DNA of 64,000 nucleotides from Fidelibacterota bacterium (GTDB lineage Bacteria; Fidelibacterota; UBA2242; JAOZSR01), in contig JAOZSR010000007.1 of assembly GCA_029939575.1 (NCBI GenBank), positions 2,092-66,091 on the forward strand, written 5' to 3'. Within the stretch, counting starts at the first letter, position 1; the number at the start of each line of letters is the position of its first letter. Below the pieces are notes generated by a model. It saw nothing but the letters and a program-made list of their open reading frames with translations. It was not told the DNA's origin and did no database searches. Made by a program: the position numbers and the translations under genes. Positions 35,489 to 53,499 of the stretch are shown here, in pieces.

Positions 35489-35522
35489 TATTAATAACTC
35501 CTAATAATTTATTTGTATTATA

Positions 35523-35999
35523 TTACATTTTTTTCGTTACTCGAAATTGTTTTAAAATATCTGGCATTACTATCTGAAAATCAGCCTGACATGAAATTTC
35601 ACCATTAACTGAGCCTGTACCTGTACAATTTCCGATTCCACGTTTCCATGATAATAATTTAGTATCCAAATAAAGACGATCTCCTGGTAAAACTTTTCGC
35701 TTTAGTTTAATATTGTTCGCTGATAATAAATACACTACTTTCCCTTTATTTCCATTTAAAGTTAAAACAGTCAGAGCGCACATTTGAACTAATGCTTCAA
35801 TTTGCAACATCCCGGGCATATTTGGATCGCCGGGAAAATGGACAGGAAAAAACCATTCATCTTCATTTAACAATTTATATCCCTTTGCACTGATTCCGGG
35901 AATAACCTCTTCTGCAAAATCAATCATGCGATATGGTGGTCTGTTTTGTTCATATTCATGAATTTCATTCACATTTAATTTTAATGGCATTAAAGGCAT
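35523..35999 (-). CDS. FabZ/FabA-like hot-dog-fold (3R)-hydroxyacyl-ACP dehydratase
   Basis: HFPGDPNMPGMLQIEALVQ matches the FabZ active-site motif (HFPgxPvmPGvL..Ea.aQ). Confidence 0.7.
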   Translation of the reverse strand: MPLMPLKLNVNEIHEYEQNRPPYRMIDFAEEVIPGISAKGYKLLNEDEWFFPVHFPGDPNMPGMLQIEALVQMCALTVLTLNGNKGKVVYLLSANNIKLKRKVLPGDRLYLDTKLLSWKRGIGNCTGTGSVNGEISCQADFQIVMPDILKQFRVTKKM

Positions 36000-36013
36000 A
36001 ATAAATCCATTTT

Positions 36014-37213
36014 CTATTGAATATTAATTATTCTTGATAAATTTCCTATAACATCATATCCATCCCAGATAGGTCCTATATCAAGAGCCTTCCCTACTGG
36101 TACTACTCTATCAATTCCCTTCAACCTATTATGAAAAATAAAATCTAAAAAAATCTTTTTTTCAAAACCAAAATAGGTTAATGTTTGAAAAGAACTGTCA
36201 ACTAAATGGCTTATCGAATTTATATCACTTGTTTCAAATTCATAAAAATATCCAAACTTTCCAATTAGTTGTTCCTTATTTTCAGGAAGTGCCTCAAGAC
36301 TAATCCGATATAAATTAACTCCATTACTCTTAAATGAAATATTCGATTCCATGTCAATAGCATTCCGGCATAATTGCATATATTTATCAACAGTTTGGAT
36401 ATATTCCATATGATATTTTTTTTCAACAATTCGACTGACAGCCTGCCAAAAAACCTCTTTACCCTTTTTATCACTTTTCCCTAACCATATTACTAATCGG
36501 GGAGACGAACAAGCATTTTGGTCCATCAAATATGTATCATTATAAAATTGCGTTGCAAGTTTTTCCAGATTATTTTCATCTAACTGAATAATTTTTTGAG
36601 CATTAAGCACACAGATAGAATAGCGATCAGAAAAAGCAATTTCAATACATCGGGCAGGAACCATTATTTTTCTGATATTGAATATTGTACTATTTCCTCC
36701 CCAAATAACCCGGGCATCACAGTGTTTAGAAAATTCACCGGTTATTTCATCGTTTTTTTTATAACGAACCACTACAGTATTTTCTTTAAAATTATGATAT
36801 TTTTTTTCTGATAATAACATGTTTAAATCATTACAAATAATATCTATTTGGGGAAATTTTTTTGAAGGAGTTCTGACAATATTGGCATTTCCCGCTAACA
36901 TACTAAAAACCAGGGAAAAGGCAAAATTTATAGGAACATTTGATGGAGTAATATGAAAAGCAAGGCCTCTACCAATTCTATTCTTATTATCATGAAATTC
37001 TGATTTCATTTTTTGGACATTGGCTTTTCGACACCAAAATGAAAAAGTTGCAATATCCGGATATTTTGCAACGTTCCTGTTTTTCCTTAAGATTGATGAA
37101 AATTCATTAAGAAATTCACAAACTAAATCATTATACGGAACCATTGGTCTGACGTCAATTTCAGATTGTCCAACTAAATATTCGATATGCGAATTCTCAG
37201 GCAATTGTATCAC
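36014..37213 (-). CDS. LuxC-family acyl-CoA/acyl-protein reductase-like protein
   Basis: 399 aa; reads as a divergent aldehyde-forming acyl-reductase of the LuxC family. No individual motif was checked. Its neighbour is LuxE-like, which supports the pairing. Overlaps that LuxE-like gene by 17 nt. Confidence 0.5.
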   Translation of the reverse strand: MIQLPENSHIEYLVGQSEIDVRPMVPYNDLVCEFLNEFSSILRKNRNVAKYPDIATFSFWCRKANVQKMKSEFHDNKNRIGRGLAFHITPSNVPINFAFSLVFSMLAGNANIVRTPSKKFPQIDIICNDLNMLLSEKKYHNFKENTVVVRYKKNDEITGEFSKHCDARVIWGGNSTIFNIRKIMVPARCIEIAFSDRYSICVLNAQKIIQLDENNLEKLATQFYNDTYLMDQNACSSPRLVIWLGKSDKKGKEVFWQAVSRIVEKKYHMEYIQTVDKYMQLCRNAIDMESNISFKSNGVNLYRISLEALPENKEQLIGKFGYFYEFETSDINSISHLVDSSFQTLTYFGFEKKIFLDFIFHNRLKGIDRVVPVGKALDIGPIWDGYDVIGNLSRIINIQ

Positions 37214-38279
37214 TGCATCCCCGTATTTCCGCTGAAGTTACTCTTCCATTAATTTTAAAATATTTCCCTTTTCTGCCACAAGAGCAATCATCCTCACCAA
37301 GAATTTGCCCGATATCCTCTGTTAAAATATTATGACCCGGATAACTTTTTGGTAAAAGTGAAATTAATTGTACTAATCCGGATTCTCCGACTTTACAAAG
37401 AGATAAATCAGCCCGTCTAATTAAAATATCTGAATAAATAGATGTATGCAGATGCCCTTCTTCACATTCAATAAAAACTGAACCGGTTTGCTCGACCATA
37501 CCATAATAATTATGAACCCTATTAAGTCCACAACTTTTGTTCAAAGCCTTTTTGTAAGAATCATTATCAACAGATTCCTCGGTTAATTTTTTCCATCCTC
37601 CACCATGAAATAGAATTGCATTTTCTAAAGGCAATCGAATTCCTAAGTCAAGTAATTTTTGATGAAAATATTTCCAAACAACAAAAGTAAATCCAAAAAG
37701 CAATATTTTATCATTTTTGTATTTTTCACAAAATATCTGCACATTTTCAATATCCAGTTCCATATTTTCATCTAAAGCATATTGATGATTTCTACCAAAT
37801 GTTGAAAACCCCAGTATTCCGGCACCACGTGCTGAAAAAAGAGTCCTGTCTTTTAACACAGATGGCGTATCTATAATCAGCATAGGCAGACGTTTTTTGC
37901 CAATAAAATTTGTAACAATTTTAGATAGTACTTTGATTTGATTTTTTGCTGCAGTTTTATCGAGAAAAATTTTTGAAACCCGGTTTCCACCAGTTCCTGA
38001 AGAAGTCATGGTTTTGAATATTTCAGATCTTTTAATACTAAACAAATCATACTCCTTAAATAACCTGACAGGAATGAATGGAATCTCACTTAACTTGTGG
38101 GTTTGTGTGGGATCATAATTTAGTAAATTCAGGATATTACGATAATGATCAGAATTTTGATAATGATGTAAAGTCATTTCATTGACAACCTGTAAAAATA
38201 GTTTATTTTTCTCTTCTTTATTTAATCCATAAGGACAATTTTCAATTATTTGATCAATATTAAACAATCTGATTCTCAT
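37197..38279 (-). CDS. LuxE-family acyl-protein synthetase-like (adenylate-forming)
   Basis: The TSSGTGG motif (phosphate-binding loop of LuxE/PaaK-type adenylating enzymes) and a length of 360 aa fit the LuxE family. Confidence 0.55.
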   Translation of the reverse strand: MRIRLFNIDQIIENCPYGLNKEEKNKLFLQVVNEMTLHHYQNSDHYRNILNLLNYDPTQTHKLSEIPFIPVRLFKEYDLFSIKRSEIFKTMTSSGTGGNRVSKIFLDKTAAKNQIKVLSKIVTNFIGKKRLPMLIIDTPSVLKDRTLFSARGAGILGFSTFGRNHQYALDENMELDIENVQIFCEKYKNDKILLFGFTFVVWKYFHQKLLDLGIRLPLENAILFHGGGWKKLTEESVDNDSYKKALNKSCGLNRVHNYYGMVEQTGSVFIECEEGHLHTSIYSDILIRRADLSLCKVGESGLVQLISLLPKSYPGHNILTEDIGQILGEDDCSCGRKGKYFKINGRVTSAEIRGCSDTIA

Positions 38280-39685
38280 TAATTTAATTCAGAGTATAAT
38301 ACTTTCCCGGAATCATTTCTGGGAATATTATCAATAAATTTCATTTTAAAACCAGCTAAGTTGATACCTATTTTAGTTGAAATATATTTTAATACCTTTG
38401 TTTTATCAACATTCCCAGTAAAATAAATTACAAGATTATCATCTGTTCCGGCACAGGCACAGTTATAACCTTTGGTTTTTAACAATTGCTCAACTTCATC
38501 AAGATTAACCCGTTTACCATACATTTTCAAAAATCGTTTCATTCGACCTGTAATATAGAAAAATCCATCGTCATCCCGTTTTGCCATGTCACCTGTATGT
38601 AATATTCCTTTATTTTCATCACCTTTGGAAAGATCAGCAATACATTGAGCATATCCCAGAGTTACATTTTTTCCCTTATATACTAATTCACCGGAAACAT
38701 TATTTTGCTCAATCTTTTGATTATTCAGGTCTTCCAGCCAAAATTGCCCGCCCGGAATTGCAATTCCCATACTGCCCAGTTTTTTTTCTGCAAATTCCCA
38801 GGGTAAATATGACATTCTTGCTGTTGCTTCTGTCTGACCATACATTACAATAAATTTCATATTTTTAGATCTACAAATTTGATTGAATTCAGCAATTATT
38901 TCCTTATTTAGTTTTCCTCCGGCCTGAGTTAATACACGTAAATCCGGTAAATCCATTCTTTCAAAACGTAATTTCTTTAACATTTCATAAATATATGGCA
39001 CTCCACCAAAAGTAGTTGCTTTATACTTTTTTATTTGAGTCCAAAACTTTTTCTCCATCAAAGTTGAATCAGTCATAATAATTGAAGCACCACATAAAAA
39101 ATGGCTGTTTATAATTGATAACATAAAAGTATAACTCATTGGCATTGTAGCAATGGGACGGTCTTTTGGACTAATCTCCAAATATTGGGCAATTGATTCT
39201 GCATTACTATTTATATTTTCATAAGATTGGCGGACAAATTTTTGACTACCTGTACTACCGGATGTTGTCAGCAATAGCGCCAGGTTCGAATCTATCTTAT
39301 GATGTTTATTAAATTGAGTTTTCACTAAAGAATATGCAGAATCTGAAAAAGTCACATCACCATCAATTTTCAGAGGTTTTGATGAATTGGGACGAAAAAT
39401 AAAATTGGGTTGATACTGATTTACCAAGGTTATGAGTAAATCCTGGTCAATTGTGTTATGAATAAGACAAATAACTGCTTTTGCTCGTAAGGCTCCAATA
39501 TATCCGGCAACTGATTCAAAACTATTTTGACAGATAGCAAAAACCAGATCACGGTTTTCCAAAAATTTACCAATCTCATCAGCTTTCTGTATTAATTTCT
39601 GATAAGTTATTTTTTTTCCGCTACTGGTAATAATAGCCAGTTTGTCCTTGTATTTATCAATATCATCATAATAATTCATATTCAC
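38279..39685 (-). CDS. AMP-dependent synthetase/ligase (acyl-ACP/CoA ligase)
   Basis: LLTTSGSTGSQKFV (AMP-binding motif I), YGQTEA (motif II), GDMAKRDDDGFFYITGRMKRFLK (motif III and hinge). Confidence 0.75.
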   Translation of the reverse strand: MNMNYYDDIDKYKDKLAIITSSGKKITYQKLIQKADEIGKFLENRDLVFAICQNSFESVAGYIGALRAKAVICLIHNTIDQDLLITLVNQYQPNFIFRPNSSKPLKIDGDVTFSDSAYSLVKTQFNKHHKIDSNLALLLTTSGSTGSQKFVRQSYENINSNAESIAQYLEISPKDRPIATMPMSYTFMLSIINSHFLCGASIIMTDSTLMEKKFWTQIKKYKATTFGGVPYIYEMLKKLRFERMDLPDLRVLTQAGGKLNKEIIAEFNQICRSKNMKFIVMYGQTEATARMSYLPWEFAEKKLGSMGIAIPGGQFWLEDLNNQKIEQNNVSGELVYKGKNVTLGYAQCIADLSKGDENKGILHTGDMAKRDDDGFFYITGRMKRFLKMYGKRVNLDEVEQLLKTKGYNCACAGTDDNLVIYFTGNVDKTKVLKYISTKIGINLAGFKMKFIDNIPRNDSGKVLYSELN

Positions 39686-39727
39686 TCCATTTGGTTAAAT
39701 CTTCAAAATTTTAATTATTTCATGGAG

Positions 39728-39967
39728 TCACATTTCAATTTTATATTTTTTCAAAATTTCTTTTCCTTTATTATATGAACTAAAATCAATAACATCATCA
39801 GTTTCAAGCATAATTTCAAATGCTTCTTCTAAGGATGCGATTAAAGACATATGCCCTACTGAATCCCATTCCGGAATTGTATTATATTCAAGTTCAGCGT
39901 TTAATTTACTTGCCTCAATTGAAAAGTTTTCCATAAATGCCTGATTATATTTTTCCTGGTTATTCAT
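39728..39967 (-). CDS. acyl carrier protein-like (phosphopantetheine attachment)
   Basis: 79 aa, acidic, with WDSVGHMSLIASLEEAF containing the DS(x) phosphopantetheinylation motif. Confidence 0.6.
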   Translation of the reverse strand: MNNQEKYNQAFMENFSIEASKLNAELEYNTIPEWDSVGHMSLIASLEEAFEIMLETDDVIDFSSYNKGKEILKKYKIEM

Positions 39968-39988: not shown

Positions 39989-40966
39989 TTATTTAAGGTT
40001 CTGATAATTTTTTGAATAGGGATTTTTAAGTATCCCATCCTTTAATAATTTATAAATTTCCCAGATTCCATCAGAAACTCTTTTATTTATTTCATATCCT
40101 AAACAATCTTTAATTTTTGAAAATTCAACCCTATAATCACGAGGATCTTCATCTTTTTTCACATAAGATATTTTAGCATTAGGGATCATTTCCGACATTA
40201 TTTCAGCCAGCATTTTTTTCTGATAATTTTCCTGAGTATCACCAACACCAAAAACCTGTTGATTTACTTTTTCTTTTGGACTTTCGAGTACCAGAATACA
40301 TGCTTTTGCTAAATCTTCAACATGACAATAAGGACGCCAGAACTGTTCTCCAAAAATCACTAATTCTTTACCCAAAGTTAATTCTCTGGCAAATTCATTT
40401 ACTGTCAAATCAAAACGCATACGAGGTGAGATTCCATAAACAGTGGAAAAACGTAATGCAGTGGGAGATAAACTTTTTATTGATTCACTTTCGAGTATAT
40501 ATTTTTCGAACTTTACTTTTAATTTCGCATAAAGAGAAACCGGATTAAGAGGTGATTTTTCATTAACATACCCTGTTCCTTCCATTTTTCCATAATTGCT
40601 ACAAGTTGATGCAAAAATAAATCGTTGAATTGTTTTACTTTCATTGCATTTATCAAATAATAGTTTTGATCCTTCCCAATTAGTTTGAGTTGCAATCTGC
40701 GGATCTTTGGCACATGCCGGATCGCCGACTATTGCTGCAAGATGTACGACACTATCAATATTTTCAAGACTTTTTTCAATATCTTCTTTCTTCCTTATAT
40801 CACCTCTGAAAAATTCAAAATTTGGATGAGAATATATACTTAACAATGATTCTCCTCCAAAATTCAAAATATCCATCCCTCTGACAAAATATCCTTTAGA
40901 TAAAAGTTTTCGGGTTAAAATAGAGCCAATATAACCTGCGCAGCCTGTAACTAAAACACGCCTCAT
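39989..40966 (-). CDS. NAD-dependent epimerase/dehydratase (extended SDR)
   Basis: N-terminal VLVTGCAGYIGSIL Rossmann motif and a length of 325 aa, typical of nucleotide-sugar epimerases/dehydratases. Confidence 0.75.
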   Translation of the reverse strand: MRRVLVTGCAGYIGSILTRKLLSKGYFVRGMDILNFGGESLLSIYSHPNFEFFRGDIRKKEDIEKSLENIDSVVHLAAIVGDPACAKDPQIATQTNWEGSKLLFDKCNESKTIQRFIFASTCSNYGKMEGTGYVNEKSPLNPVSLYAKLKVKFEKYILESESIKSLSPTALRFSTVYGISPRMRFDLTVNEFARELTLGKELVIFGEQFWRPYCHVEDLAKACILVLESPKEKVNQQVFGVGDTQENYQKKMLAEIMSEMIPNAKISYVKKDEDPRDYRVEFSKIKDCLGYEINKRVSDGIWEIYKLLKDGILKNPYSKNYQNLK

Positions 40967-40968
40967 GA

Positions 40969-42267
40969 TTATTTTCCTCCGGGAATTAGAGTTAATATTT
41001 CTTTAATCGGCATACAGTATTTATCCGCTTCAAGAGCTCGTTCATTCTCTAAAATACTTTTTGCAGTATTTAACATAGCCGGATATGCGCTTCTTAATAA
41101 TTGATTAGCATAAATAACAACAGAAATTCCAGAATCAATCAATTCTTTTTCTGTAATCTTACAATAGGTTGAAGGCACAACTACTACAGGAACGCGTTTT
41201 TTAAAATTATTATAGGATTGACAAAATTCTAATATTTCATCGGGACTTTTTTCTTTGCTATGTATCATAATAGCATCTGCTCCTGCACGAATATAAGCAT
41301 TAGCACGAATCAGGGCATCGTCAATACCCTTTTTCAAAATCAGGCTCTCGATTCTGGCAATAATCATAAAATCATTTGTCACCTGGGCTTCTTTACCTTG
41401 TTTAATTTTATCACAAAAATGCTCAATATCATCCTGTTTTTGTTTAACATCAGTTCCAAAAAGCGAATTTTTCTTTAAACCAATTTTATCTTCGATAATT
41501 ATTGCTGAAATACCAAGTCGCTCAAGGCTTCGGACTGTAAAAACAAACCGTTCTGAAATACTCCCGGTATCACCATCAACAATTATTGGTTTTGTTGTTA
41601 CTTCCAGAATGTTATTTATAGTTGACATGCGGGAGGTGAAATCTACTAATTCAATATCAGGTTTGCCTTTGGCTGTGGAATCAGTAAGACTACTAATCCA
41701 AATCCCATCAAATTCATTAATTTTTTCTTTCTTCTGAACCTGTACATTTTCGGCGATAAGCCCAGTTAATCCATTATGAGCCTCAATAACTCTTACAATG
41801 GGTTTTGCTTCAATTAATCTCCGGAGTTTTGCTCTTCTGATTTCTGAAGTTGTGCCTACTTCTTTAATACGTGCATTGAGATATGTAGATGAAACACCTT
41901 CGGTATATGGTACTTCTATTAATTTTCCACCCCATTTTTTTAATGTATCAATTACCCGTTTCCTGGTTTCGTGCTGCACACCGGTTTTCCAATCATCTCC
42001 ATGTACAACAAAATCCGGTTTGTACTTTTCTAAATTTGGAACATAATCAAGAGTTTCCTGAGGAAAAACCTGGCTCACTCCTTTAATATTTCGAATAATT
42101 TCTTCACGTTGTTTATAATTCATATATGGCAAACGTTTATAACTTGCTATTGCCTGATCTGTAAGTAATCCAACAATAACTTCCCCATATTCCCTGGCTT
42201 TTTTAATAACGTTTAAATGTCCGGGATGTATCAGATCAGCACTCATTCCTATATATACTTTTTCCAT
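40969..42267 (-). CDS. bifunctional cytidylyltransferase / phosphoenolpyruvate phosphomutase (Fom1-like Ppm-CyTase fusion)
   Basis: N-terminus: [15 protein letters not shown] (HxGH nucleotidyltransferase motif). C-terminus: VDGDTGSI and [15 protein letters not shown], which match the PEP mutase/isocitrate-lyase-superfamily catalytic motifs (vDaDtGfG; EDK..PKrcgH region). Confidence 0.8.
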
Positions 42268-42295
42268 AATTTCACCTATATCAATTAATTATAAC

Positions 42296-43624
42296 TTATA
42301 TATTTACTTTATCTTTAAAATCTTTCGGTAATCCCGGATAATTGTATGGAGGATGAACATTTTCTCCCGGAGGTGGCAATTTCCCACCATACCAGGCGGA
42401 TGTATCTTTATGAATATCACATATAAATCTGCTAACCAGAGCTAACTGTTCATAATAACTGAGATTAGAAATTTTTTCTACGGATTTGATTTTTTCGGGG
42501 TTTAGTTTTTGTATAATTTCAGTTAAATTTGTTACCCAAATATCGCACATTCTTTTCCTGAACATCTTAGTCTTATTTTCTAAATATTCTGATTTATATG
42601 AAGGTTCATCAAAAACTTTTATGTCTTCCAACGTCCAATCATATCTTAATGGATGACGAGCAAAATCATTTAATAAATTTCGATTTTCACCTGGGTCAGA
42701 TAAGAGATCATAAAGTTCTTCCTGAGAGCCGGTTATGGCGGTATGAGGACTATAATGAGCAATATATTTCCATTGATCTTTAAGAATAGAGGTTACCCGG
42801 TGAGGTTGCATTTTATACATTGTATCAGAAATAATTTCTTCTGCTACTTCAATCACATTATCAGTAATCAGCGGATTTAATTGCATTAAATGATGATTTT
42901 CATTAATAATACGCGGTTTATCTGCTGTAATAAAACAAGGTACCCTAATTATTGTCTCATATAAAAAGAAAGCATGACCAATTAAATTATTATGTTCTTT
43001 TGACATATCTCCATGATCAGAATAAAAAATCAAGGTTGTATCATCCAAATTAATTTGATCATATAAAATTCCGAGAGCCTGATCATCTTCTCTGATAATT
43101 CTTTTTAACATTTGAGGATCATCAGGATTTTCCGGAGTTACAGGCGGAACTGCAGAACATGAATGATAAAACAAAAAATATGGATCGTCAACATCTTTAA
43201 TTGTATCTAATATATTTTGAATTGTTTTTTTTGTTGTGCCTTGTTCAATAATAACTCTTTCTGCATCATCTCCCATATAAATACCATCAGCATAATCCTG
43301 AATATATTTTTCAGTAAATAAAATAAAATTTTTTCTACCGGTATCTTTCATTTTCTTAAAAATATTATCTGCATAAAATTGTGGTTTATCCTCAGGATAA
43401 GTAAATCTATCAAACTGATAAGGTAATCTATTATTTATAATTGCACTGAGCGTCATTACTGTAGAAGCAGAATTAGAATACATTTTTTTAAATACAATAC
43501 TTTTTTGTGCTATTCTATCCATGTTAGGTGTTGGAAATCTTCCACCAAAAGTCGAATATAAATTTTGACTTCTACTATCAATCGAAAACATTATAATATT
43601 TTTCTTAGGTTTAAAATTCACCAT
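42296..43624 (-). CDS. sulfatase / alkaline-phosphatase-superfamily protein (no obvious TM anchor)
   Basis: N-terminal IIMFSIDSRSQ and mid-protein IFYSDHGDM resemble the metal-binding motifs of sulfatase/phosphoethanolamine-transferase catalytic domains. Confidence 0.55.
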   Translation of the reverse strand: MVNFKPKKNIIMFSIDSRSQNLYSTFGGRFPTPNMDRIAQKSIVFKKMYSNSASTVMTLSAIINNRLPYQFDRFTYPEDKPQFYADNIFKKMKDTGRKNFILFTEKYIQDYADGIYMGDDAERVIIEQGTTKKTIQNILDTIKDVDDPYFLFYHSCSAVPPVTPENPDDPQMLKRIIREDDQALGILYDQINLDDTTLIFYSDHGDMSKEHNNLIGHAFFLYETIIRVPCFITADKPRIINENHHLMQLNPLITDNVIEVAEEIISDTMYKMQPHRVTSILKDQWKYIAHYSPHTAITGSQEELYDLLSDPGENRNLLNDFARHPLRYDWTLEDIKVFDEPSYKSEYLENKTKMFRKRMCDIWVTNLTEIIQKLNPEKIKSVEKISNLSYYEQLALVSRFICDIHKDTSAWYGGKLPPPGENVHPPYNYPGLPKDFKDKVNI

Positions 43625-43635
43625 AATTTTCCTTA

Positions 43636-44745
43636 CTAATAAATTTCTTTTAAAATATTTACAATCTTATCTGGAGTTAAATCAACAATATTGTTCTCAA
43701 TACGTCCCTTTGCCATACTTTGCTTTGAAAGAAAATTTAACTCTTCCTCTTTCACTCCATAATGAGATAATTTAAAACCAATTTTTTCATTTATACTTAA
43801 TAGGATATCATGCCAAAAAATTTCTATATTTTTAGAGCCTGTTAATGCTAAAATTTGCTTGATTTCTGTTTTGATTTTTGGATAATTTATTTTTAATAAA
43901 GAATAAAGTGACATTGAACATGCAATACCATGAGGAATATTATAATATAATGTTAATGGATAACTAATAGAATGAGCAGCTCCTGTTTTAGTATTTGAAA
44001 AGGCTAATCCTGCATACATAGAAGCTAAAATTAATTCTTTCCGCATTTCCTTTGATATTGCTTTCTCTATTTTTGTTATACAATTATAAATTATTACAAT
44101 TGCAGAAATTGCTAATCTTGTAGAAACAGGATTCCTGTTTTTATTCCAGATAGCTTCAAAAGCATGAGATAGAGCATCTAAGGTAGAAATAATAGAATTT
44201 TCCAAGGATAAGGTCGATAATAAGTCAACATTATAAATTGCAAAATCCGGATAGTTTCCCACATCAGAAACAGATATTTTCTTTTTATTTTTTTTATCCC
44301 ACACTGTTGCCCACATTGTTAATTCACTTCCGGTACCATGGGTTGATGGAGCAACAATAAAAATAGGTTTTTTGAATTTTTCAGGATTTAATTTCAATAA
44401 ATTGTTAATATTTTTTTCATGGGTATATAATGACATTCGTACAGTTTTTGCCGTATCAATTACCGAACCACCACCGATTGCAATAATTAAATCCGGTTTT
44501 ATTTTCCAGGCATAATCAATAGAACTTTGGCAACTTTTTAACGACGGATTCAATTCATATTCCGAAAAAACATTTAAATTTGGTTTTGCCTGAGATAATT
44601 TTTTAAAATATTCGGTTTCAATAAAATGTTTATAGCAAAACAGAATAATTTTGTTCTGATCAAAATTATCTATTTGACTTATTAAAGTATCAACCAAATC
44701 ATCTGAATGAAATATTGTAACCGGATTATAGTATTGCCAATTCAT
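43636..44745 (-). CDS. iron-containing alcohol dehydrogenase (phosphonoacetaldehyde reductase candidate, FomC/PhpC-like)
   Basis: GGGSVIDTAK and the downstream His-rich metal-binding region are typical of group III Fe-ADH. Adjacent to ppd and ppm. Confidence 0.7.
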   Translation of the reverse strand: MNWQYYNPVTIFHSDDLVDTLISQIDNFDQNKIILFCYKHFIETEYFKKLSQAKPNLNVFSEYELNPSLKSCQSSIDYAWKIKPDLIIAIGGGSVIDTAKTVRMSLYTHEKNINNLLKLNPEKFKKPIFIVAPSTHGTGSELTMWATVWDKKNKKKISVSDVGNYPDFAIYNVDLLSTLSLENSIISTLDALSHAFEAIWNKNRNPVSTRLAISAIVIIYNCITKIEKAISKEMRKELILASMYAGLAFSNTKTGAAHSISYPLTLYYNIPHGIACSMSLYSLLKINYPKIKTEIKQILALTGSKNIEIFWHDILLSINEKIGFKLSHYGVKEEELNFLSKQSMAKGRIENNIVDLTPDKIVNILKEIY

Positions 44746-45845
44746 TTTTTTAAGGAATCCATAAATTTTAATTTCATTTCTACTGGTGTAATATTTGGTC
44801 TCTTCAGATCTTTAATAGTTCCTTGTTTAATAGGAATATGCAGAAAAACCGGGCCGGAAGTTTTTGAGAATTTTAGCAAATATTTTTTAAATTCATCGGG
44901 ATTATTAATCGTTAAACTTTCATTATAGCCACATTCTTTCGCAATTTTTGGGAAATTACATTTTGAAGAAGTTGTTTTTTGACCACCTGTTGATTCATAA
45001 ACCTGATTATCAAAACATATATGCACAAAATTTTCAGGTTTATAAAATCCAACAGTTGACAGAGTTCCCATTTTCATCAATAAAGCTCCATCACCATCTA
45101 AGACAAAAATTCTTCTATCAGGAAATGATTTGGCAATTCCAAGACCAATTGATGCTAAACATCCCATAGAGCCCATCATATAAAATTTCCCTGCAATATC
45201 TGATGTCTGGTAAAGTTCTCTTCCGGAAAACCCGGTCGCTCCCAGGAGAATATCATCTTTTTGTGAAACCTCTGATAATTTTTCCAGATAATCTAACCTG
45301 GAATACAAAGCTAATTTTTCTTTACATCCTTCGTTAAATTTTTCAAAATATCCTTTTTCGATTATAAATGCATAAGGAGTAGATTGTTTATTAAAATGAT
45401 TAAATGCGGTTTTAATTTGCTTATTTAAATCTTCCGGGGAATCATTCTCTTTAAGTAAAAGACTGTAAGGAATGCTAAAAACTGACAATAATTCCCGAAT
45501 TGTATCTCCCATAATTTTATGCTGCGGTGCATCATTCATGCCTGGCTTAGCTCTCCATGAAATAAGTAACAAGGCTGGTAATTTATACATTAATTGCAGA
45601 GATGATAATGGATTAATTGCATTACCATATCCATCATTTTGCATATAAACTACCGGGACATTATCTGAAAGGGCGATGCCAGCTGCAATTCCCATTGCTT
45701 CTCCCTCTGAAGAGCAGGTATAATTATTCACTTTTTCATGAAATTCAATGTAATTAATCAGATCTTTAAAAACAGAACAGGGAACGCCGGAAAAATTTAG
45801 TAATTTATTGTTAATTAACGAATTTATAAAAGTTTGTGGTTTCAT
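44742..45845 (-). CDS. ppd: phosphonopyruvate decarboxylase-like TPP enzyme
   Basis: 367 aa. TPP-binding motif VLDGDGALLMKMGTLSTVG. The length and architecture fit the Ppd/sulfopyruvate-decarboxylase family. It is the first gene of the long operon and overlaps the Fe-ADH by 4 nt. Confidence 0.7.
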   Translation of the reverse strand: MKPQTFINSLINNKLLNFSGVPCSVFKDLINYIEFHEKVNNYTCSSEGEAMGIAAGIALSDNVPVVYMQNDGYGNAINPLSSLQLMYKLPALLLISWRAKPGMNDAPQHKIMGDTIRELLSVFSIPYSLLLKENDSPEDLNKQIKTAFNHFNKQSTPYAFIIEKGYFEKFNEGCKEKLALYSRLDYLEKLSEVSQKDDILLGATGFSGRELYQTSDIAGKFYMMGSMGCLASIGLGIAKSFPDRRIFVLDGDGALLMKMGTLSTVGFYKPENFVHICFDNQVYESTGGQKTTSSKCNFPKIAKECGYNESLTINNPDEFKKYLLKFSKTSGPVFLHIPIKQGTIKDLKRPNITPVEMKLKFMDSLKK

Positions 45846-45942: not shown

Positions 45943-45964
45943 TATATGTTAACCTGGTAAGTTT
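45943..45964. terminator. hairpin (CCTGGTAA / TTACCAGG, 6-nt loop) between csrA and the ppd operon start; possible csrA terminator
   Basis: Perfect 8-bp inverted repeat in the 380-nt AT-rich intergenic region. Confidence 0.3.
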
Positions 45965-46227
45965 ATTTACCAGGCTATAAAAAATATAAAATGGCTAGAT
46001 TAATTCTAAATTTCATTAACTTCATGTTAGTCTTTTTTCAATTTTACTCTTTACTTATTTTATTAGATGTTAATGATTATATCTATATTTTATCTTTAGT
46101 AAAAATAAGATGATTTATACAATATTTTATTTTTTCCAAAAATATCCCTATATAATAACTAACTACTAATCCAATTATGTTACGTGCTTTTATTATCCTA
46201 CCTTTTGGTGTAATCCAACGATGCATA

Positions 46228-46461
46228 TTATTTAGTTCCTATAAACAATTGTTTAAGCATATGCGGTTTGAGATTTTTGGTTACTAAGGAGGCCTTGTTT
46301 TCCTCTTGAATTTTTTCGTAAATCTCTTCACGATGGACTGGAATTTCAATAGGAGCGTCTATTCCGATTTTTGCATGACCGCTGGTTGTTTCTAATAATT
46401 TTATAACGACATTGCTTCCTATCCGAATACTTTGATTACATTTCCTTGTAAGAACTAGCAT
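46228..46461 (-). CDS. csrA: carbon storage regulator CsrA
   Basis: MLVLTRKCNQSIRIGSNVVIKLLETTSGHAKIGIDAPIEIPVHREEIYEKI is near-consensus CsrA. Confidence 0.85.
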   Translation of the reverse strand: MLVLTRKCNQSIRIGSNVVIKLLETTSGHAKIGIDAPIEIPVHREEIYEKIQEENKASLVTKNLKPHMLKQLFIGTK

Positions 46462-46545
46462 TCTCCCTCCCTGGAGATTTAATATTTAATAAATTGACTA
46501 TAATTACAGAAATTCTCATGGGAATTTTCCTTATCTTATTAAAAA

Positions 46546-46977
46546 TTATAAAAGAGTATCTAAACGATTTTGTGATGATAATTGATTAGAATCCAAAATT
46601 ACCTGGTTACCTCTCATATTTGAAAGATTAATTATTATTGGTGCTTTAGTATTTGCAGTAAATTGCTGTTCCTCCTGATTTGCTCTCAGTATCACATACA
46701 TTTCCACATTGTTAGGATCTTTAATATCCAATTTGCGCAATTCAGCGGATGGAATTTTCATATACTCATAACTACTTAATAATTGTGCATTTATCACAAT
46801 CATTGCGATATCTTCATATTCTTTTGCCTGAAACATTTTAAATGGAGGATATTCCTCGATATCTTCGAGATAAAACTCTTTCACGTCTTCAAATCCTGGA
46901 ATTCCATATTTAAAGACAACTACCTGCTGCTCAGCAACATCAGGGAGTTCTTTCGTAGCTAACATTTCTTTTTGCAC
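46546..46977 (-). CDS. fliW: flagellar assembly factor FliW
   Basis: VVVFKYGIPGFEDVKEFYLEDIEEYPPFKMFQAKEYEDIAMIVINAQLL fits the FliW pattern. Paired with csrA as in other flagellated bacteria. Confidence 0.8.
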   Translation of the reverse strand: MQKEMLATKELPDVAEQQVVVFKYGIPGFEDVKEFYLEDIEEYPPFKMFQAKEYEDIAMIVINAQLLSSYEYMKIPSAELRKLDIKDPNNVEMYVILRANQEEQQFTANTKAPIIINLSNMRGNQVILDSNQLSSQNRLDTLL

Positions 46978-47001
46978 GTTTCTTGGTAACCTTTCCTTTT
47001 T

Positions 47002-47883
47002 TTACCTTAGAAAATTCAATATATTCAAGTGTATTGCATCTGAAGTTGTTTGAAGAGCTGCCTTATAAGCCATTTCTTCCGCATTATATTGAGTAATAGC
47101 ATCAACAAAATCAGTATCTTCTGTTTTGGATAAATATGATTTTAAATTCAAGTTGCTGTTTTCTAACCTTTTGCCTGTCATTTCTATTTGAATTGACAAG
47201 GAACCCATTCCCGCGGACAAAGCTAAAACATTATCGGAAACTTCATCTAATTTGGACAGAGAGTTATCAATTGCAGTTTCATCACCGGCACGTAAATTAT
47301 CTCTTAATTCTGTGAGTGAAGAAAATAATTCCTTATCAATAAGCTGAGTACCATCTAAATTAATTTCAACATTATAATTTTCAGCGATTCGACGATTAAT
47401 TTTTTTTGAATTTCCATTATATGTAATTGATGTGCCATCAAATTCAAAAGGTTTGTCGCCTTTTATTTTGTTGCCTCCGAACAAATATTTTCCGGAAAAG
47501 GAAGAATTAGCCAAAGTTATTACTTCTTCTAAAATATCTTCAATCTGGTCACTAATTGTATTTTTTACAGATTGATCGGCACTATTCCCAGCTCCCTGTA
47601 TAGTTAAATCTTTTGCTTTGATCAGGTCAGTATTTATTCTATCAAGAATACTTATTGTATCATCAACCCAACCCTGAGCATCTGCAACGTTTGCCAGATA
47701 TTGTTCATTTATGACTATTTCGTTTCTAAATCTGGTAGCCCGAGTAAAGGCCACAGGGTCATCTGATGCTCTTTGAAACTGTTTTCCTGTTGCAATATCG
47801 GTCTGATGTCCATTCATTGTATTTCGGCTTGTATTCAGACTTTTTATTAGATTCCGTGTAATCATTGATTCTGTTACACGCAT
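47002..47883 (-). CDS. flgL: flagellar hook-associated protein 3 (FlgL)
   Basis: N-terminal MRVTESMITRNLIKSLNTSRNTMNGHQTDIATGKQFQRASDDP and a flagellin-like C-terminus. Sits next to flgK. Confidence 0.8.
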   Translation of the reverse strand: MRVTESMITRNLIKSLNTSRNTMNGHQTDIATGKQFQRASDDPVAFTRATRFRNEIVINEQYLANVADAQGWVDDTISILDRINTDLIKAKDLTIQGAGNSADQSVKNTISDQIEDILEEVITLANSSFSGKYLFGGNKIKGDKPFEFDGTSITYNGNSKKINRRIAENYNVEINLDGTQLIDKELFSSLTELRDNLRAGDETAIDNSLSKLDEVSDNVLALSAGMGSLSIQIEMTGKRLENSNLNLKSYLSKTEDTDFVDAITQYNAEEMAYKAALQTTSDAIHLNILNFLR

Positions 47884-47917
47884 ATCAAACTCCTTTCCTC
47901 ATCTCTTTCAATTTCCC

Positions 47918-49276
47918 TTAAATTAAATTCAGTACAGTTCTAGACATTTCATCTACAGTATTAATTATTTTCGCGGCTGCCTGGTATGCCTGTTCATACT
48001 GTGTTAATTGTATTAATTCTTCATCAAGTGATACGCCGGAAACAGAATCCTGTTGATTCTTTAGGCTTTGCACTACCATTCCCTGGCTTTCATTTAAAAA
48101 ACTAGATTCCTGTACTTTACTTCCTACCTGTCCAATTAAAGAATTATAATATTCAGATATTGTGTTCCCTTCTAAATTATTTCTAAACTGAATATCATAA
48201 ATAGCCTGGGCTATAGTCCCGTTTCCTGCTTCATCAAGATTCGCTGATGCAGCTATTAAAGATGGATCTTCTTTAATATTTTCATTTAACTGTAAATCAC
48301 CGGCACCCGTTGGATTACTATTAAAAAAATTAATTCCGGTAATCCCACTCAGGTTATATCCCCTTGCATGAATAGTATTAATTTGTTTAGCCATATTTAC
48401 AGCCAAATTATCCAGTTGATTTATATAATCAGGAATATAGGTATTGTTAATCTGTAACAAACTTCCCATTTCACCAGATTGAATATTTAGGGTTCTGTTA
48501 TTATCAATTGTTTTTATTGAAACTTTTACTGTGCCGTTTATTATTTTTGATTCTGTGGTTAATAAATTCGTTTTATCACCCGATACCAGAATATTCCCGG
48601 CTGAAGATAATGTTAATTGTCCATTGTCATTTTCACGGGCATCTATATCAAGTACTTTTGATAATTCTGATACAATTATATCCCGTTGATCTAATAAATC
48701 ATTTGATGGATTAACATTTATCTGCTTATTAATAATTTTTATCTGATTGAGTTTCTGATTTACTTCATTAACTTTACCATTTAACTCAGAACTAATTTCT
48801 GATTGTAAGTTTGTCAAATTCTTACTGACTCTGTTAAACGTCTGAGTAAGGCTAATACTTTTATCTCTTACAATTGTCCTTGTATACTGTTTATCCGGTT
48901 CATTGGCTAAATCGCTCCAGGCATTCCAAAATTCAGAAATTACATTTGATAAACCTGATTCATAAGGTTCACCAAAAACATCTTCAATTTGGGTAAATAT
49001 CTTTTCGTCCATTTCAAATTTGCCATTATTCTGGTATTCAAGATTTAATTGATTATCAACAAATTTATTCCTGATTCTTGACAGAGATTCAGACGAAACA
49101 CCACTACCAAGCTTAGAAAAACGAATATGATTTTCACGAAGTTCCTCAAATTGTGCTTTTCTCCTTGTATATCCATCAGTATTAATATTGGCAATATTAC
49201 GTGAAACTGTATTTATTGCGTTTCTATGAGTCATTAAGGATCTTTTTGAAATATCTAATATACTTGATAAGGACAT
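47918..49276 (-). CDS. flgK: flagellar hook-associated protein 1 (FlgK)
   Basis: MSLSSILDISKRSLMTHRNAINTVSRNIANINTDGYTRRKAQFEE is the FlgK N-terminus; 452 aa. Confidence 0.85.
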   Translation of the reverse strand: MSLSSILDISKRSLMTHRNAINTVSRNIANINTDGYTRRKAQFEELRENHIRFSKLGSGVSSESLSRIRNKFVDNQLNLEYQNNGKFEMDEKIFTQIEDVFGEPYESGLSNVISEFWNAWSDLANEPDKQYTRTIVRDKSISLTQTFNRVSKNLTNLQSEISSELNGKVNEVNQKLNQIKIINKQINVNPSNDLLDQRDIIVSELSKVLDIDARENDNGQLTLSSAGNILVSGDKTNLLTTESKIINGTVKVSIKTIDNNRTLNIQSGEMGSLLQINNTYIPDYINQLDNLAVNMAKQINTIHARGYNLSGITGINFFNSNPTGAGDLQLNENIKEDPSLIAASANLDEAGNGTIAQAIYDIQFRNNLEGNTISEYYNSLIGQVGSKVQESSFLNESQGMVVQSLKNQQDSVSGVSLDEELIQLTQYEQAYQAAAKIINTVDEMSRTVLNLI

Positions 49277-49283
49277 AATTCCC

Positions 49284-49820
49284 TCAAATCTGATAATTTA
49301 GCATCTTATTATTAATAGCTTCAGTGCTATTCATATATCCATTAATATTGTATGTCTCAGAAGTTTTATCCCTGGTATAAAGATAGAGATTAATCAATTC
49401 TTTAACATGACAAAGAGAAATATTTAATAAATAAGAATTTTCGCCATTTAATTTAGTAACATTATTTAAACTTCTTTTTAATTTATATCTAAGTGTTGTC
49501 AATTTTACAGAATTTTCCGGAGCTGCAAAATTAATAATTTCTTTTAATGTCATAAGGATATTTTTAGAAGAATAAACACGAGCCAATTTTTTTACTATCT
49601 CTATTCTTTCTTCCTCAATTTCTTTACATATTTTTGTTTGACGCGCTTCTTCTGAAATTGTAGATTGTAATAATTCAACATCTCCCTGAACAATTAATTT
49701 TTGTTTAGTCTTTAATATATTAACAAGTTTATCATAATCCTGATTCTCAATCTTTAAGATTTCAATTAATTTTGTAAACAATATAGGCGATTTTTCTTTT
49801 TTCATCTTATTCATCCTCAT
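49284..49820 (-). CDS. FlgN-like flagellar chaperone (putative)
   Basis: 178 aa helical protein immediately upstream of flgK and flgL. Called from position and composition. Confidence 0.4.
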   Translation of the reverse strand: MRMNKMKKEKSPILFTKLIEILKIENQDYDKLVNILKTKQKLIVQGDVELLQSTISEEARQTKICKEIEEERIEIVKKLARVYSSKNILMTLKEIINFAAPENSVKLTTLRYKLKRSLNNVTKLNGENSYLLNISLCHVKELINLYLYTRDKTSETYNINGYMNSTEAINNKMLNYQI

Positions 49821-50196
49821 TAAAACCTAAGGGATTCATTAATGCGGGGTTTTGTAAATAATTATTTTTTAATTCTGACAACTGGGAGATATCACCTTTT
49901 CCTTTTAAAGAATTAAAAATCATATCAGATAATCCGATTCCACCATTATGGGCAACTGCTTTACCCATAACCGAACTGAACATCATGGTGGATAAATTCT
50001 GTTTATCCCCTGAATCTGTTTTGGGGATTGTTTTTTCCATAGCTTTAAAAATCTGAGTGATAAAAATAGCTTCCAGATCATTTGCTTTTTCTCTTAATAA
50101 AATATCGCGCCCATTTTGTTTGTCTGATAATTTTTTATTCTGATTAACAGATTTCTTCAGAATTTCGTTCATATTATTATTTATATTTATCTTCAT
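49807..50196 (-). CDS. flagellar rod-binding protein (FlgJ N-terminal-domain-like)
   Basis: DLEAIFITQIFKAMEKTIP matches the Rod-binding domain motif (LEavFl.qmLKsMr). Confidence 0.55.
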   Translation of the reverse strand: MKININNNMNEILKKSVNQNKKLSDKQNGRDILLREKANDLEAIFITQIFKAMEKTIPKTDSGDKQNLSTMMFSSVMGKAVAHNGGIGLSDMIFNSLKGKGDISQLSELKNNYLQNPALMNPLGFNEDE

Positions 50197-50206
50197 TTTT
50201 TCACTC

Positions 50207-51975: not shown

Positions 51976-51979
51976 TTTC

Positions 51980-52684: not shown

Positions 52685-52694
52685 ATTTCTATCT

Positions 52695-53483: not shown

Positions 53484-53499
53484 TATATTCTCCCTTTAT

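Follow-up and report, generated by a model that had tools for sequence, protein, structure and literature searches.

Four genes with the look of a phosphonate pathway stand among glycan and flagellar genes in the window, i.e. the complete stretch of 64,000 nucleotides analysed here. What do these genes produce, how may the product be transferred, and to which acceptor?

Layout of the cassette and its island

Four tightly packed ORFs were found on the minus strand at 40969-45845. Their coordinates agreed exactly with those in an earlier note on this DNA, and all three peptides quoted there from the fusion protein were present in its translation. The distances between ppd, the Fe-ADH gene, the sulfatase-fold gene, the fusion gene and the following epimerase gene are -4 (the ppd and Fe-ADH ORFs overlap), 11, 28 and 2 nt, which suggests co-transcription. 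The proposed position at the head of an operon was supported: the cassette is the first unit past a terminator-like hairpin 3' of csrA. This hairpin divides the flagellar operon from the glycan island, and a second one lies nearby (Table 1). The leader (45846-45990) has a folding energy of -38.3 kcal/mol (z = -4.4); an Rfam search of this region gave zero matches. The source organism, a marine-type bacterium, is uncultured and known from metagenomes only.

Table 1. Positions of the cassette, the remaining island and its flanks in the window
Feature	Position	Strand	Evidence
Flagellin (284 aa), FliS, FliD, FlaG; one island flank	1358..4643	+	Pfam
Glycosyltransferase block: two GT2-TPR proteins, cNMP-binding protein, GT4, 3237-aa protein	5665..20130	-	Pfam
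Nonulosonic acid (legionaminic-type) block	20985..31845	-	Pfam + NCBIfam matches
Acyl/ketol side-chain block	31858..39967	-	Pfam + NCBIfam matches
NAD-dependent sugar epimerase/dehydratase	39989..40966	-	Pfam Epimerase 148 bits
Fom1-type fusion, 432 aa: cytidylyltransferase (residues 9-130) + PEP mutase (residues 148-430)	40969..42267	-	
Alkaline-phosphatase (AP)/sulfatase-fold protein, 442 aa, soluble, without formylglycine motif	42296..43624	-	Pfam Sulfatase 56 bits
Iron-type alcohol dehydrogenase (Fe-ADH), 369 aa, predicted phosphonoacetaldehyde reductase yielding 2-HEP	43636..44745	-	Pfam Fe-ADH + ADH_Fe_C
Phosphonopyruvate decarboxylase (Ppd) of 367 aa; its gene leads the island	44742..45845	-	TIGR03297, TPP_enzyme_C/N
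Second hairpin	45894-45937		terminator scan
Terminator-like hairpin, csrA-ppd gap	45950..45977	-	terminator scan
csrA, fliW, flgL, flgK, flgN, flgJ-like, flgI, flgH, flgA, flgG, flgF; other flank	46228..54267	-	Pfam

The cassette stands first in an island of 40 kb whose enzymes are all soluble. The epimerase behind the fusion matched GalE, RmlB and LegB weakly, each under cutoff. The side-chain block comprises ACP-like, AMP-ligase, LuxE-like, LuxC-like, FabZ-like, radical SAM/SPASM and SDR proteins and a split transketolase; the ACP-like ORF (39728-39967) is called in public contigs too, as is csrA, which was read from the sequence. The nonulosonic acid block contains a LegC-family aminotransferase, a formyltransferase-like and a GT2-like protein, NeuB, a CMP-NulO synthetase, a GFO oxidoreductase, a second DegT protein, Epimerase_2-like, CBS-nucleotidyltransferase and GNAT proteins and a WbuX amidotransferase. 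Here the LegC family (TIGR04181, 480 > 420 bits) and WbuX (TIGR03573, 312 > 203 bits) exceeded their cutoffs; NeuB (343 bits) and a PseF-like match (167 bits) remained below. In the glycosyltransferase block the 3237-aa protein has an unknown N-terminus followed by GT2-GT2-GT4-methyltransferase-TPR-GT2-TPR, and TM-like segments are absent from the block. The central region of the flagellin has 29% Ser+Thr. The gene order from csrA to flgF was matched in two Marinimicrobia relatives. The NeuB, CMP-sugar synthetase and flagellar neighbours named in the earlier note were all recovered by profile matches.

Cassette enzymes and predicted product

The gene identities of the cassette are close to certain. 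The fusion protein scored 408.6 bits with TIGR02320 (PEP mutase; cutoff 319.55), compared to 152 bits for PnPy hydrolase and 104 bits for methylisocitrate lyase. Accordingly, a C-terminus from a non-mutase isocitrate-lyase family was rejected and the proposed PEP mutase was confirmed. DGDTG is present at residues 231-235 and EDKxxxxxNS as [10 protein letters not shown] at residues 259-268; the latter motif is Ppm-specific and serves as a criterion in PMC6697681. The HxGH nucleotidyltransferase N-terminus, also named earlier, was verified by PF01467 (Pfam, 63 bits, residues 9-130) and by HPGH at 14-17; in addition, TEGVSST at 122-128 resembles RTxGISTT. Ppd reached 383.9 bits with TIGR03297 (NCBIfam trusted cutoff 312.5), as expected from the earlier assignment, and carries the TPP motif GDG..DN at residues 251-280. 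Sulfopyruvate decarboxylase beta scored 162 bits, under its cutoff of 221.5, and an acetolactate-synthase-type enzyme was rejected because the best such match had about 22-26 bits. For the Fe-ADH the assignment stood in part. TIGR03405 (Phn_Fe-ADH/PsrA) was its top NCBIfam family (247.1 bits; runner-up 163.5 bits) and both Pfam domains were found, yet the trusted cutoff of 423.7 bits was not reached. NAD and metal motifs are present (GGGSVID, D190/H194, H258/H272).

Sixty-six relatives of the fusion (49-72% identity) were compared. ppd comes next in nearly all; an Fe-ADH gene adjoins ppd in 16 of the 19 most similar loci (63-72% identity) and in 8 of the remaining 47.

From these domains a pathway can be proposed, each step of which we infer. 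The Ppm domain would isomerise PEP to phosphonopyruvate. Ppd would convert this to phosphonoacetaldehyde and so draw the unfavourable mutase equilibrium forward. The Fe-ADH would reduce the aldehyde to 2-hydroxyethylphosphonate (HEP), and the N-terminal domain of the fusion would form CMP-HEP from HEP and CTP. The same route had been predicted in the earlier note. It fits the domain content and two precedents: Fom1 yields CMP-HEP and has the sole PF01467 CyTase domain reported as assayed (PMC6697681), and PhpC sets the precedent for the HEP route (PMC8942020). HEP and CMP-HEP are the best-supported chemistry and probably the products of the cassette. A class V (PhnW-type) aminotransferase is absent from the cassette. 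Together with the Fe-ADH in 16 of the 19 nearest loci and the CMP-HEP made by Fom1 this favours HEP over AEP.

Could the end phosphonate nevertheless be another compound? An aminotransferase of the island might turn phosphonoacetaldehyde into 2-AEP. Alternatively, the acyl-ACP machinery, the SDR or the radical SAM/SPASM enzyme might tailor HEP before or after its cytidylylation. Two DegT aminotransferases and the radical SAM enzyme are indeed located downstream of the cassette; however, the DegT proteins have their matches among sugar aminotransferase families, with one of them over the LegC-family cutoff, and the PhnW-type enzyme is lacking, unlike in the Helicobacter AEP-type locus. The score of the Fe-ADH below the TIGR03405 cutoff would suit a different product, but the gene beside ppd is conserved in all relatives of the cassette. 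At the related locus P0003 the Fe-ADH gene is directly followed by one for a class III aminotransferase, and AEP is the phosphonate actually observed on a flagellin glycan (PMC8861647). An MpnS/HepD-like gene was not seen here. We consider an end product other than HEP rather improbable.

The closest architectural parallel is Fom1 of Streptomyces wedmorensis (fosfomycin), which according to PMC6697681 shares PF01467 joined to PEP mutase, HxGH and EDKxxxxxNS and likewise has Ppd and Fe-ADH as partners giving HEP. Unlike the Fom1 system, the cassette has no Fom3, Fom4 or FomD, which makes a transient cytidylylation unlikely, and it is located in a glycan context instead of an antibiotic cluster.

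The soluble alkaline-phosphatase-fold protein

How would the phosphonate leave CMP? The third gene had been termed sulfatase-like. As to the fold this was right: the protein has the N-terminal acidic ligand and the D-H pair of sulfatases and alkaline phosphatases (D16, D203, H204) besides its Pfam match. The gene had been passed over as a bystander, but it stands out most in the cassette: its product is rare and no formylglycine sulfatase, and it is nearly always ppm-linked. The formylglycine motif C/S-x-P/A-x-R is absent from all 442 residues; the aligned residues are S54-T55-V-M-T-L with T55 at the formylglycine position, and S54, T55 and L59 are invariant in 11 of 11 family members. Therefore, an S1 sulfatase or a phosphonate monoester hydrolase (PMH) was rejected. 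Residue 9 already opens the first beta-strand, and neither a signal peptide nor a TM-like segment was found in the protein. The 1.84 billion representatives searched contained just 9 full-length clusters of this very rare family. By sequence it is nearest to S1 sulfatases and PMHs, both hydrolases; by fold LtaS, LtaP, BcsG and EptC are equally near. Solved structures share 12-22% identity with the protein.

The genomic company of the family was informative. Phosphonate biosynthesis genes adjoin six of the seven closest relatives (at least 40% identity), and the CyTase-Ppm fusion adjoins five. P0002, P0003 and P0007 have CyTase-Ppm/Ppd/Fe-ADH as neighbours, P0004 adjoins a CyTase-Ppm gene truncated by the contig end and P0006 follows an Fe-ADH fragment; the loci L077 and L078 carry the full phosphonate gene set. 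ppm was absent from the accessible DNA around the close relative P0005 (L074) and the distant P0008-P0010. Remoter relatives adjoin a flagellin, FapA or NeuB genes.

Other phosphonate systems have a different protein at this point. According to Rice et al. (2019, PMC6697681) the Pnt pathway employs PntC (LicC-like) and LicD-type transferases for attaching AEP to cell-surface glycans. The logic is the same, from Ppm via Ppd, a small phosphonate and a CMP-phosphonate to a glycan, with the nucleotidyl activation fused to Ppm. The cassette differs by a nucleotidyltransferase of PF01467 instead of PF12804, by predicted HEP instead of AEP and by an AP-superfamily protein where a LicD, CDP-alcohol or TagF-like transferase would stand. 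Such transferases do occur at CyTase-Ppm loci: LicD and a CDP-alcohol transferase at L019, a TagF-like transferase with a LicC-like NTP transferase and a class V aminotransferase at L056. None of the three types was found among the island proteins with Pfam and NCBIfam. LicC-like PF12804 and LicD near ppm, the Pnt hallmark, were not found as main matches in the island, where PF12804 appeared as a secondary match only, on sugar-nucleotidyltransferases.

We tentatively propose, at slightly less than even chances, that the AP-fold protein is the phosphonyl (HEP) transferase. Thr55 (or Ser54) with the metal site D16/D203/H204 would attack the phosphonyl phosphorus of CMP-HEP, free CMP and hand HEP to a sugar hydroxyl, either of a legionaminic-type nonulosonic acid or of another residue. 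Superfamily members that transfer phosphoryl groups likewise have Thr/Ser instead of formylglycine, which counts toward this role. The characterised transferases of the superfamily (LtaS/LtaP, EptA/EptC/MCR-1, BcsG) are all anchored in the membrane, with lipids as donors and an extracytoplasmic site of action, whereas the protein examined here has no anchor. We know of no precedent for a soluble AP-fold transferase with a CMP-phosphonate donor.

A hydrolase is the less probable assignment, and we regard it as unlikely. It might act on CMP-phosphonates as a phosphodiesterase similar to FomD, or as a PMH by which the modification is edited or recycled. Transfer would then fall to another protein, for instance to the unannotated N-terminal 450 residues of the 3237-aa protein or to an unknown protein of 242 aa. 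The nearest families by sequence would agree with hydrolysis, but PMHs and sulfatases work with the formylglycine which is missing. Undoing the CyTase step would be useful only if an enzyme such as Fom3 had tailored the intermediate in between, and a cobalamin-type radical SAM enzyme is absent from the island. Moreover, the AP-fold gene is the most constant partner of the cassette within its family, and other phosphotransferase families were undetectable in the island. Taken with the transferase proposal, the gene content makes us lean slightly toward a self-contained cassette which would pass the activated phosphonate to a glycan made by the rest of the island.

Flagellin as the probable destination

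The island is situated between fliC-fliS-fliD-flaG and csrA-fliW-flgL-flgK. In two related Marinimicrobia genomes (L080, L081) the same slot after csrA is occupied by different, variable GT/TPR islands without phosphonate genes. Glycan genes at a variable position between flagellin/cap and hook-junction genes correspond to a flagellin glycosylation island. A membrane protein, flippase, polymerase or oligosaccharyltransferase is not encoded in the island. Because all its proteins are soluble and flagellin and hook-filament junction genes flank it, the glycan is most likely on flagellin. A Maf-type flagellin nonulosonic-acid transferase was not detected in the island by Pfam or NCBIfam; the architecture of the two GT2-TPR proteins and of the TPR-GT modules in the 3237-aa protein would suit a flagellin glycosyltransferase. 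GT2-TPR is the architecture of known flagellin glycosyltransferases (GmaR). Such enzymes would place the acceptor glycan on flagellin in the cytoplasm, prior to export. The legionaminic-type NulO genes of the island and the flagellin, FapA or NeuB neighbours of the remoter AP-fold relatives point the same way. From this context we consider a flagellin glycan the fairly probable destination of the phosphonate.

The same chemistry might serve a glycan elsewhere, and the site between flagellar operons would then merely be a recombination hot spot. The phosphonate might be carried by a different protein glycosylated in the cytoplasm or by a glycoconjugate that is secreted or lies at the surface, or it might be part of a soluble metabolite derived from a nucleotide-sugar. 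The locus of the closest AP-fold relative (L070, Ca. Aureabacteria) has many GTs and no flagellar gene within +/-10 kb, and at the 66 other CyTase-Ppm loci flagellar or NeuB genes were absent throughout (0/66), so that the flagellar link is supported by few genomes. Marine phosphonates have been proposed on membrane glycoproteins (PMC8931226). However, an exporter, a flippase, a priming transferase and an O-oligosaccharyltransferase are all missing from the island; unless they are encoded elsewhere, this excludes the customary routes (capsule, LPS, PglL). The undetected Maf homologue speaks for another destination, the GT2-TPR architecture known from GmaR for flagellin. Both sides of the slot are flagellar, with GT/TPR genes varying in related genomes. 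A destination other than flagellin appears unlikely to us.

The earlier note held that a phosphonate had never been described on flagellin. This was mistaken. In Clostridioides difficile 630, MS revealed 2-AEP linked to GlcNAc in the type A glycan of flagellin as a minor glycoform; the organism lacks pepM (Claushuis et al. 2022, PMC8861647). It is the sole published C-P compound on a flagellin O-glycan which we found. In C. difficile AEP is seen and pepM is lacking, whereas here a complete cassette is predicted from the genes of a flagellar island. A phosphonate biosynthetic cassette encoded within a flagellar glycosylation island was not found in the literature searched.

Among known phosphonoglycans, PMC8942020 covers the HEP-exopolysaccharide of Stackebrandtia nassauensis and the methylphosphonate of Nitrosopumilus maritimus, and puts PhpC-type loci at ~8.5% of ppm neighbourhoods, with products known for few. 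They share the core of Ppm, Ppd and a PhpC-type ADH, and HEP is esterified to carbohydrate. The cassette differs in that its predicted acceptor is a protein glycan assembled in the cytoplasm and not an exported polysaccharide, that MpnS is absent, and that the host belongs to another phylum, probably the Marinimicrobia. The flagellin islands of Campylobacter, Aeromonas, Clostridium and Geobacillus, with their legionaminic/pseudaminic acid genes, are also hypervariable glycan islands among late flagellar genes. Common to them and the island studied here are NeuB and a CMP-NulO synthetase, an aminotransferase of the LegC family, a PtmE-like CBS-nucleotidyltransferase and a WbuX/PseA-like amidotransferase. 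The island departs from them by the undetected Maf, by GT2-TPR proteins and the 3237-aa multi-GT protein, and by the phosphonate cassette at its head.

The phosphonate cassette and its predicted product

The four consecutive minus-strand ORFs of the cassette lie exactly at the coordinates of the earlier note, and all peptides quoted in it were recovered from the translation. The spacing of the genes is -4, 11, 28 and 2 nt, and the first gene after the cassette encodes an NAD-dependent sugar epimerase/dehydratase. The C-terminal domain of the cytidylyltransferase-PEP mutase (CyTase-Ppm) fusion scored 408.6 bits with the mutase model TIGR02320 (cutoff 319.6), compared to 104 bits for methylisocitrate lyase and 152 bits for phosphonopyruvate hydrolase, and it carries the Ppm-specific EDKxxxxxNS motif at residues 259-268. 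Further motifs are HPGH at 14-17 and TEGVSST at 122-128. These NCBIfam scores ruled out that the C-terminus is a non-mutase member of the isocitrate lyase family. Similarly, the TPP enzyme, which has the GDG..DN motif, scored 383.9 bits with the phosphonopyruvate decarboxylase (Ppd) model TIGR03297 (cutoff 312.5) and about 20-26 bits only with models of the acetolactate synthase type, which were thus ruled out. On both points on which the earlier note might have failed the NCBIfam scores came out for the phosphonate reading. The iron-type alcohol dehydrogenase (Fe-ADH) has its NAD and metal ligands in place; its best match gave 247 bits, which is under the cutoff of 423.7 bits, and the next family gave 163 bits. 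Judged by family models and motifs, the cassette genes are real and their identities correct.

Features of the window: cassette, island and flanking blocks
Feature	Position	Strand	Remarks
Flagellin (284 aa, 1358-2212), FliS, FliD, FlaG	1358-4643	+	
ORFs of 140 and 160 aa	4645-5553	+	
Island	5665-45845	-	
331-aa protein	8140-9135	-	cyclic-nucleotide-binding domain
3237-aa protein	10417-20130	-	single ORF; GT2-GT2-GT4-methyltransferase-TPR-GT2-TPR after an unannotated 450-residue N-terminus
242-aa ORF	20144-20872	-	
ACP-like, AMP-ligase, LuxE-like, LuxC-like, FabZ-like, radical SAM/SPASM, SDR, split transketolase	31858-39967	-	
Cassette	40969-45845	-	
CyTase-Ppm fusion	40969-42267	-	N-terminal PF01467 cytidylyltransferase + PEP mutase
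AP-fold protein	42296-43624	-	Pfam Sulfatase, weak, 56 bits
Fe-ADH	43636-44745	-	best NCBIfam match phosphonate-associated TIGR03405
Ppd	44742-45845	-	
Leader	45846-45990	-	
Terminator-like hairpin	45977-45950	-	
Second hairpin	45937-45894	-	
CsrA, FliW, FlgL, FlgK, FlgN, FlgJ-like, FlgI, FlgH, FlgA, FlgG, FlgF	46228-54267	-	
Two large DUF3857 proteins	55384-59201	+	

Of all Ppm proteins, 23.6% are CyTase(PF01467)-Ppm fusions, and the product of the assayed fusion Fom1 is CMP-HEP, the cytidylylated form of 2-hydroxyethylphosphonate (HEP) (PMC6697681). For comparison, 66 loci with related fusions were taken from GTDB genomes. The ppd gene adjoined the fusion gene in nearly all of them. An Fe-ADH gene was present in 16 of the 19 most similar loci (63-72% identity) and in 8 of the other 47. 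In the window no PhnW-type class V aminotransferase was found, in contrast to the Helicobacter locus L056, which is of the 2-aminoethylphosphonate (AEP) type, and no MpnS/HepD-like gene was seen. Because of the Fe-ADH in similar loci and the lack of these genes, HEP activated as CMP-HEP is the best supported outcome; we consider it the likely product, with the caveat that the Fe-ADH scores under its family cutoff. Family membership and conserved gene association lend good support to the proposed route to CMP-HEP. HEP may be tailored further at a later step. A Fom3-like methylation of CMP-HEP was rejected since the island is without a cobalamin-binding radical SAM protein by Pfam.

The proteins closest to the fusion share up to 72% identity with it and are scattered over many phyla, archaea and CPR bacteria among them. 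This distribution suggests that the fusion has spread horizontally. In none of the 66 loci did we find the AP-fold gene, NeuB or flagellar genes.

A glycosylation island in a flagellar slot

The window has a G+C content of 28-36%. Between the two flagellar blocks runs an uninterrupted series of about 30 same-strand genes, of which the cassette is the first unit. The block from the ACP-like to the split transketolase genes sits between the cassette and the nonulosonic acid (NulO) genes, and its product may be an unusual acyl or ketol substituent. The NulO block includes a LegC-family aminotransferase (480 bits, above the cutoff of 420), NeuB, a CMP-NulO synthetase, a CBS-nucleotidyltransferase and an Epimerase_2-like protein, and it also contains a WbuX/PseA-type amidotransferase (312 bits, above 203). 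The last block is made up of glycosyltransferases, including two GT2-TPR proteins. By its predicted domains (three GT2, one GT4, a SAM methyltransferase, two TPR blocks and no membrane segment) the 3237-aa protein would seem to be a glycosyltransferase that builds a methylated oligosaccharide in assembly-line fashion. Sections of it are similar, at up to 40% identity, to an 887-aa GT2-GT2 protein which adjoins the AP-fold gene in Ca. Aureabacteria (locus L070, 11410-14073). The 331-aa protein is encoded well inside the glycosyltransferase block, which may point to regulation by cNMP, either of glycosylation or of an enzyme encoded nearby.

A hydropathy scan detected no membrane-spanning segment in any island protein. 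The island therefore lacks a flippase, a polymerase, an ABC exporter, a priming transferase and an oligosaccharyltransferase. Such a gene set is in keeping with protein glycosylation in the cytoplasm, as with flagellin, and speaks against a capsule, LPS or PglL-type route. From the gene context, a flagellar destination of the phosphonate is plausible.

The contig was also present in the JGI metagenome 3300005264 and in two SRA assemblies (SRR6301447, SRR21545386). The best named relatives of its FlgI, with 65-69% identity, belong to Candidatus Marinimicrobia / Fidelibacterota MAGs. In two related Marinimicrobia genomes (loci L080, 15117-21173, and L081, 15110-21164) the order flgF-G-A-H-I-J-N-K-L-fliW-csrA is kept and a glycan island begins directly after csrA. 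The island of L080 contains a TPR-GT2 protein, an asparagine synthase and GT4s, that of L081 a TPR protein, an epimerase, a nucleotidyltransferase, a GHMP kinase and a split transketolase (18496-20308); phosphonate genes were absent from both. The same flagellar position with differing content marks a hypervariable glycosylation slot in this phylum, in which the cassette is an accessory module.

The AP-fold protein as a candidate phosphonyl transferase

The third gene of the cassette encodes a 442-aa protein of the sulfatase/alkaline-phosphatase fold, as predicted confidently by AlphaFold (pLDDT 81, pTM 0.84), with neither a signal peptide nor a membrane anchor. In an alignment of family members (A1) Ser54-Thr55 is invariant, and the strand-1 acidic residue D16 and the metal pair D203-H204 are conserved. 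In HMMER alignments to sulfatases Thr55 falls at the formylglycine position, and Met57 and Leu59 stand where Pro and Arg of the C/S-x-P-x-R maturation motif would be. A Thr/Ser nucleophile characterises the superfamily's phosphoryl-transfer branch rather than sulfatases. We rejected the reading of a true sulfatase with anSME-like maturation by the radical SAM/SPASM protein of the island: the AP-fold protein has no C/S-x-P/A-x-R target motif at any position, and the best 25 of 60 NCBIfam matches of the radical SAM/SPASM protein included no anaerobic sulfatase maturase family. The tail of the AP-fold family (residues ~409-442) is of low confidence (pLDDT < 50), and in A1 a motif x-P-G/x-L-P-x-x-F is conserved there, with L432, P433 and F436 nearly invariant. 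Given the many TPR-glycosyltransferases in the island, this conserved disordered tail could, as pure speculation, serve for docking.

The family is small. A word-indexed search of 5.8 billion clusters returned 11 relatives, and an exhaustive profile search of 1.84 billion representatives only nine full-length clusters with more than 440 bits. Below these the scores fall to at most 178 bits; these hits constitute a separate sister family of about 400 aa (P0143-P0161), which aligns with 120-178 bits over the first ~330 profile positions and is clearly set apart. A metagenome scan for further relatives yielded three loci, two with one and the same arrangement.

Phosphonate genes directly adjoin six of the seven closest relatives (at least 40% identity). 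CyTase-Ppm, Ppd and Fe-ADH genes are the neighbours of P0002 (Ca. Aureabacteria), P0003 and P0007; P0004 is next to a CyTase-Ppm gene that is truncated where its contig stops, P0006 is preceded by an Fe-ADH fragment, and loci L077/L078 have the complete set together with NeuB and a CMP-NulO synthetase. P0005, the remaining one of the seven, neighbours a legionaminic-type cluster, and the DNA available upstream of it is only 1.4 kb long. Distant relatives (33-35% identity) adjoin a GT2-GT2 protein and NeuB, a 618-aa flagellin, or FapA. This flagellin (locus L073, 13874-15730), 2.5 kb from the AP-fold relative, has FG-GAP repeats that separate its N-terminal from its C-terminal helical domain; the flagellin gene and the AP-fold gene are separated by IS66-type transposase genes, and integrase genes lie upstream. 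Sulfatase-like genes may also accompany the methylphosphonate cluster of N. maritimus.

Which protein could transfer the phosphonate? Among other CyTase-Ppm loci one has LicD and a CDP-alcohol transferase, and another a TagF-like transferase; none of these families was among the Pfam/NCBIfam matches in the island. The Thr/Ser site, the phosphonate-linked relatives and the lack of another transferase family in the island led us to propose the AP-fold protein for the transferase slot, to which we give somewhat less than an even chance. In this scheme the phosphonyl P of CMP-HEP is attacked by Thr55 with loss of CMP, after which a sugar hydroxyl would receive the HEP group. The main rival is a hydrolase, either FomD-like or phosphonate-monoesterase-like. 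To our knowledge, all characterised transferases of the AP fold are membrane-bound and use a lipid donor, so a soluble transferase using CMP-HEP is without direct precedent. What is truly new in the locus is this candidate transferase. That it represents a hitherto undescribed class of phosphonyl transferases, soluble and cytoplasmic, with CMP-HEP as a donor and a Thr/Ser-metal site, which place a C-P group onto NulO-containing flagellin glycans, is a bolder and rather unlikely extension.

Precedents, implications and minor features

Earlier work has established phosphonoglycans, the activation of phosphonates by nucleotidyl transfer and fusions of the Fom1 type (PMC6697681, PMC8942020). Marinimicrobia are counted among the ocean phosphonate producers (PMC9381506), and marine cell-surface glycoproteins have been postulated to bear phosphonates (PMC8931226). 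The claim of the earlier note that phosphonate on flagellin is without precedent was too strong: in C. difficile 630, an organism without pepM, 2-AEP is attached to GlcNAc of the type A flagellin glycan (PMC8861647). The locus joins two known things, phosphonoglycan tailoring and a flagellin glycosylation island. In the full-text literature, with most subscription journals outside coverage, we found neither a report of a flagellar glycosylation island that harbours a cassette for phosphonate biosynthesis nor a description of the AP-fold family.

Surface phosphonate decoration is common, yet hardly any product, acceptor or transferase is known for clusters of the HEP type; PMC8942020 lists just two products that have been isolated. 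Here, the acceptor can be narrowed to a cytoplasmic, flagellum-linked glycan, and the candidate transferase belongs to an enzyme family that is small and clearly bounded. If the bolder extension is true, no earlier route to a phosphonylated flagellum would have been defined genetically, and the cassette would hint at where HEP esters, a part of marine high-molecular-weight dissolved organic phosphorus, come from. The cassette would offer a genetic parallel for the 2-AEP of C. difficile flagellin, which is unexplained (PMC8861647), and add a concrete cellular structure to the idea of marine phosphonates on glycoproteins (PMC8931226). Speculatively, an anionic, hydrolysis-resistant C-P flagellar surface could matter for resistance to phages, grazers or enzymes.

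The 242-, 140- and 160-aa ORFs had no Pfam match; the latter two also had no NCBIfam match (E <= 1e-4), and for the first the NCBIfam scan covered E <= 1e-10. Paired Cys motifs (CTCKAC...CPHC) occur in the 242-aa ORF, whose neighbours are the amidotransferase on one side and the 3237-aa glycosyltransferase on the other. Just past the flagellar rod genes, on the opposite strand, are two adjacent large proteins with DUF3857 and a transglutaminase-like core or DUF3858. A sigma-70 promoter scan gave 51 matches with 41 expected, which is uninformative in AT-rich DNA, and the 380-nt leader had no Rfam match to a riboswitch or known RNA. The terminator-like hairpin parts the cassette from csrA. In the leader of ppd at 45846-45990 two stable hairpins are predicted (MFE -38.3 kcal/mol, z = -4.4 compared to shuffles), the second of which could be regulatory.
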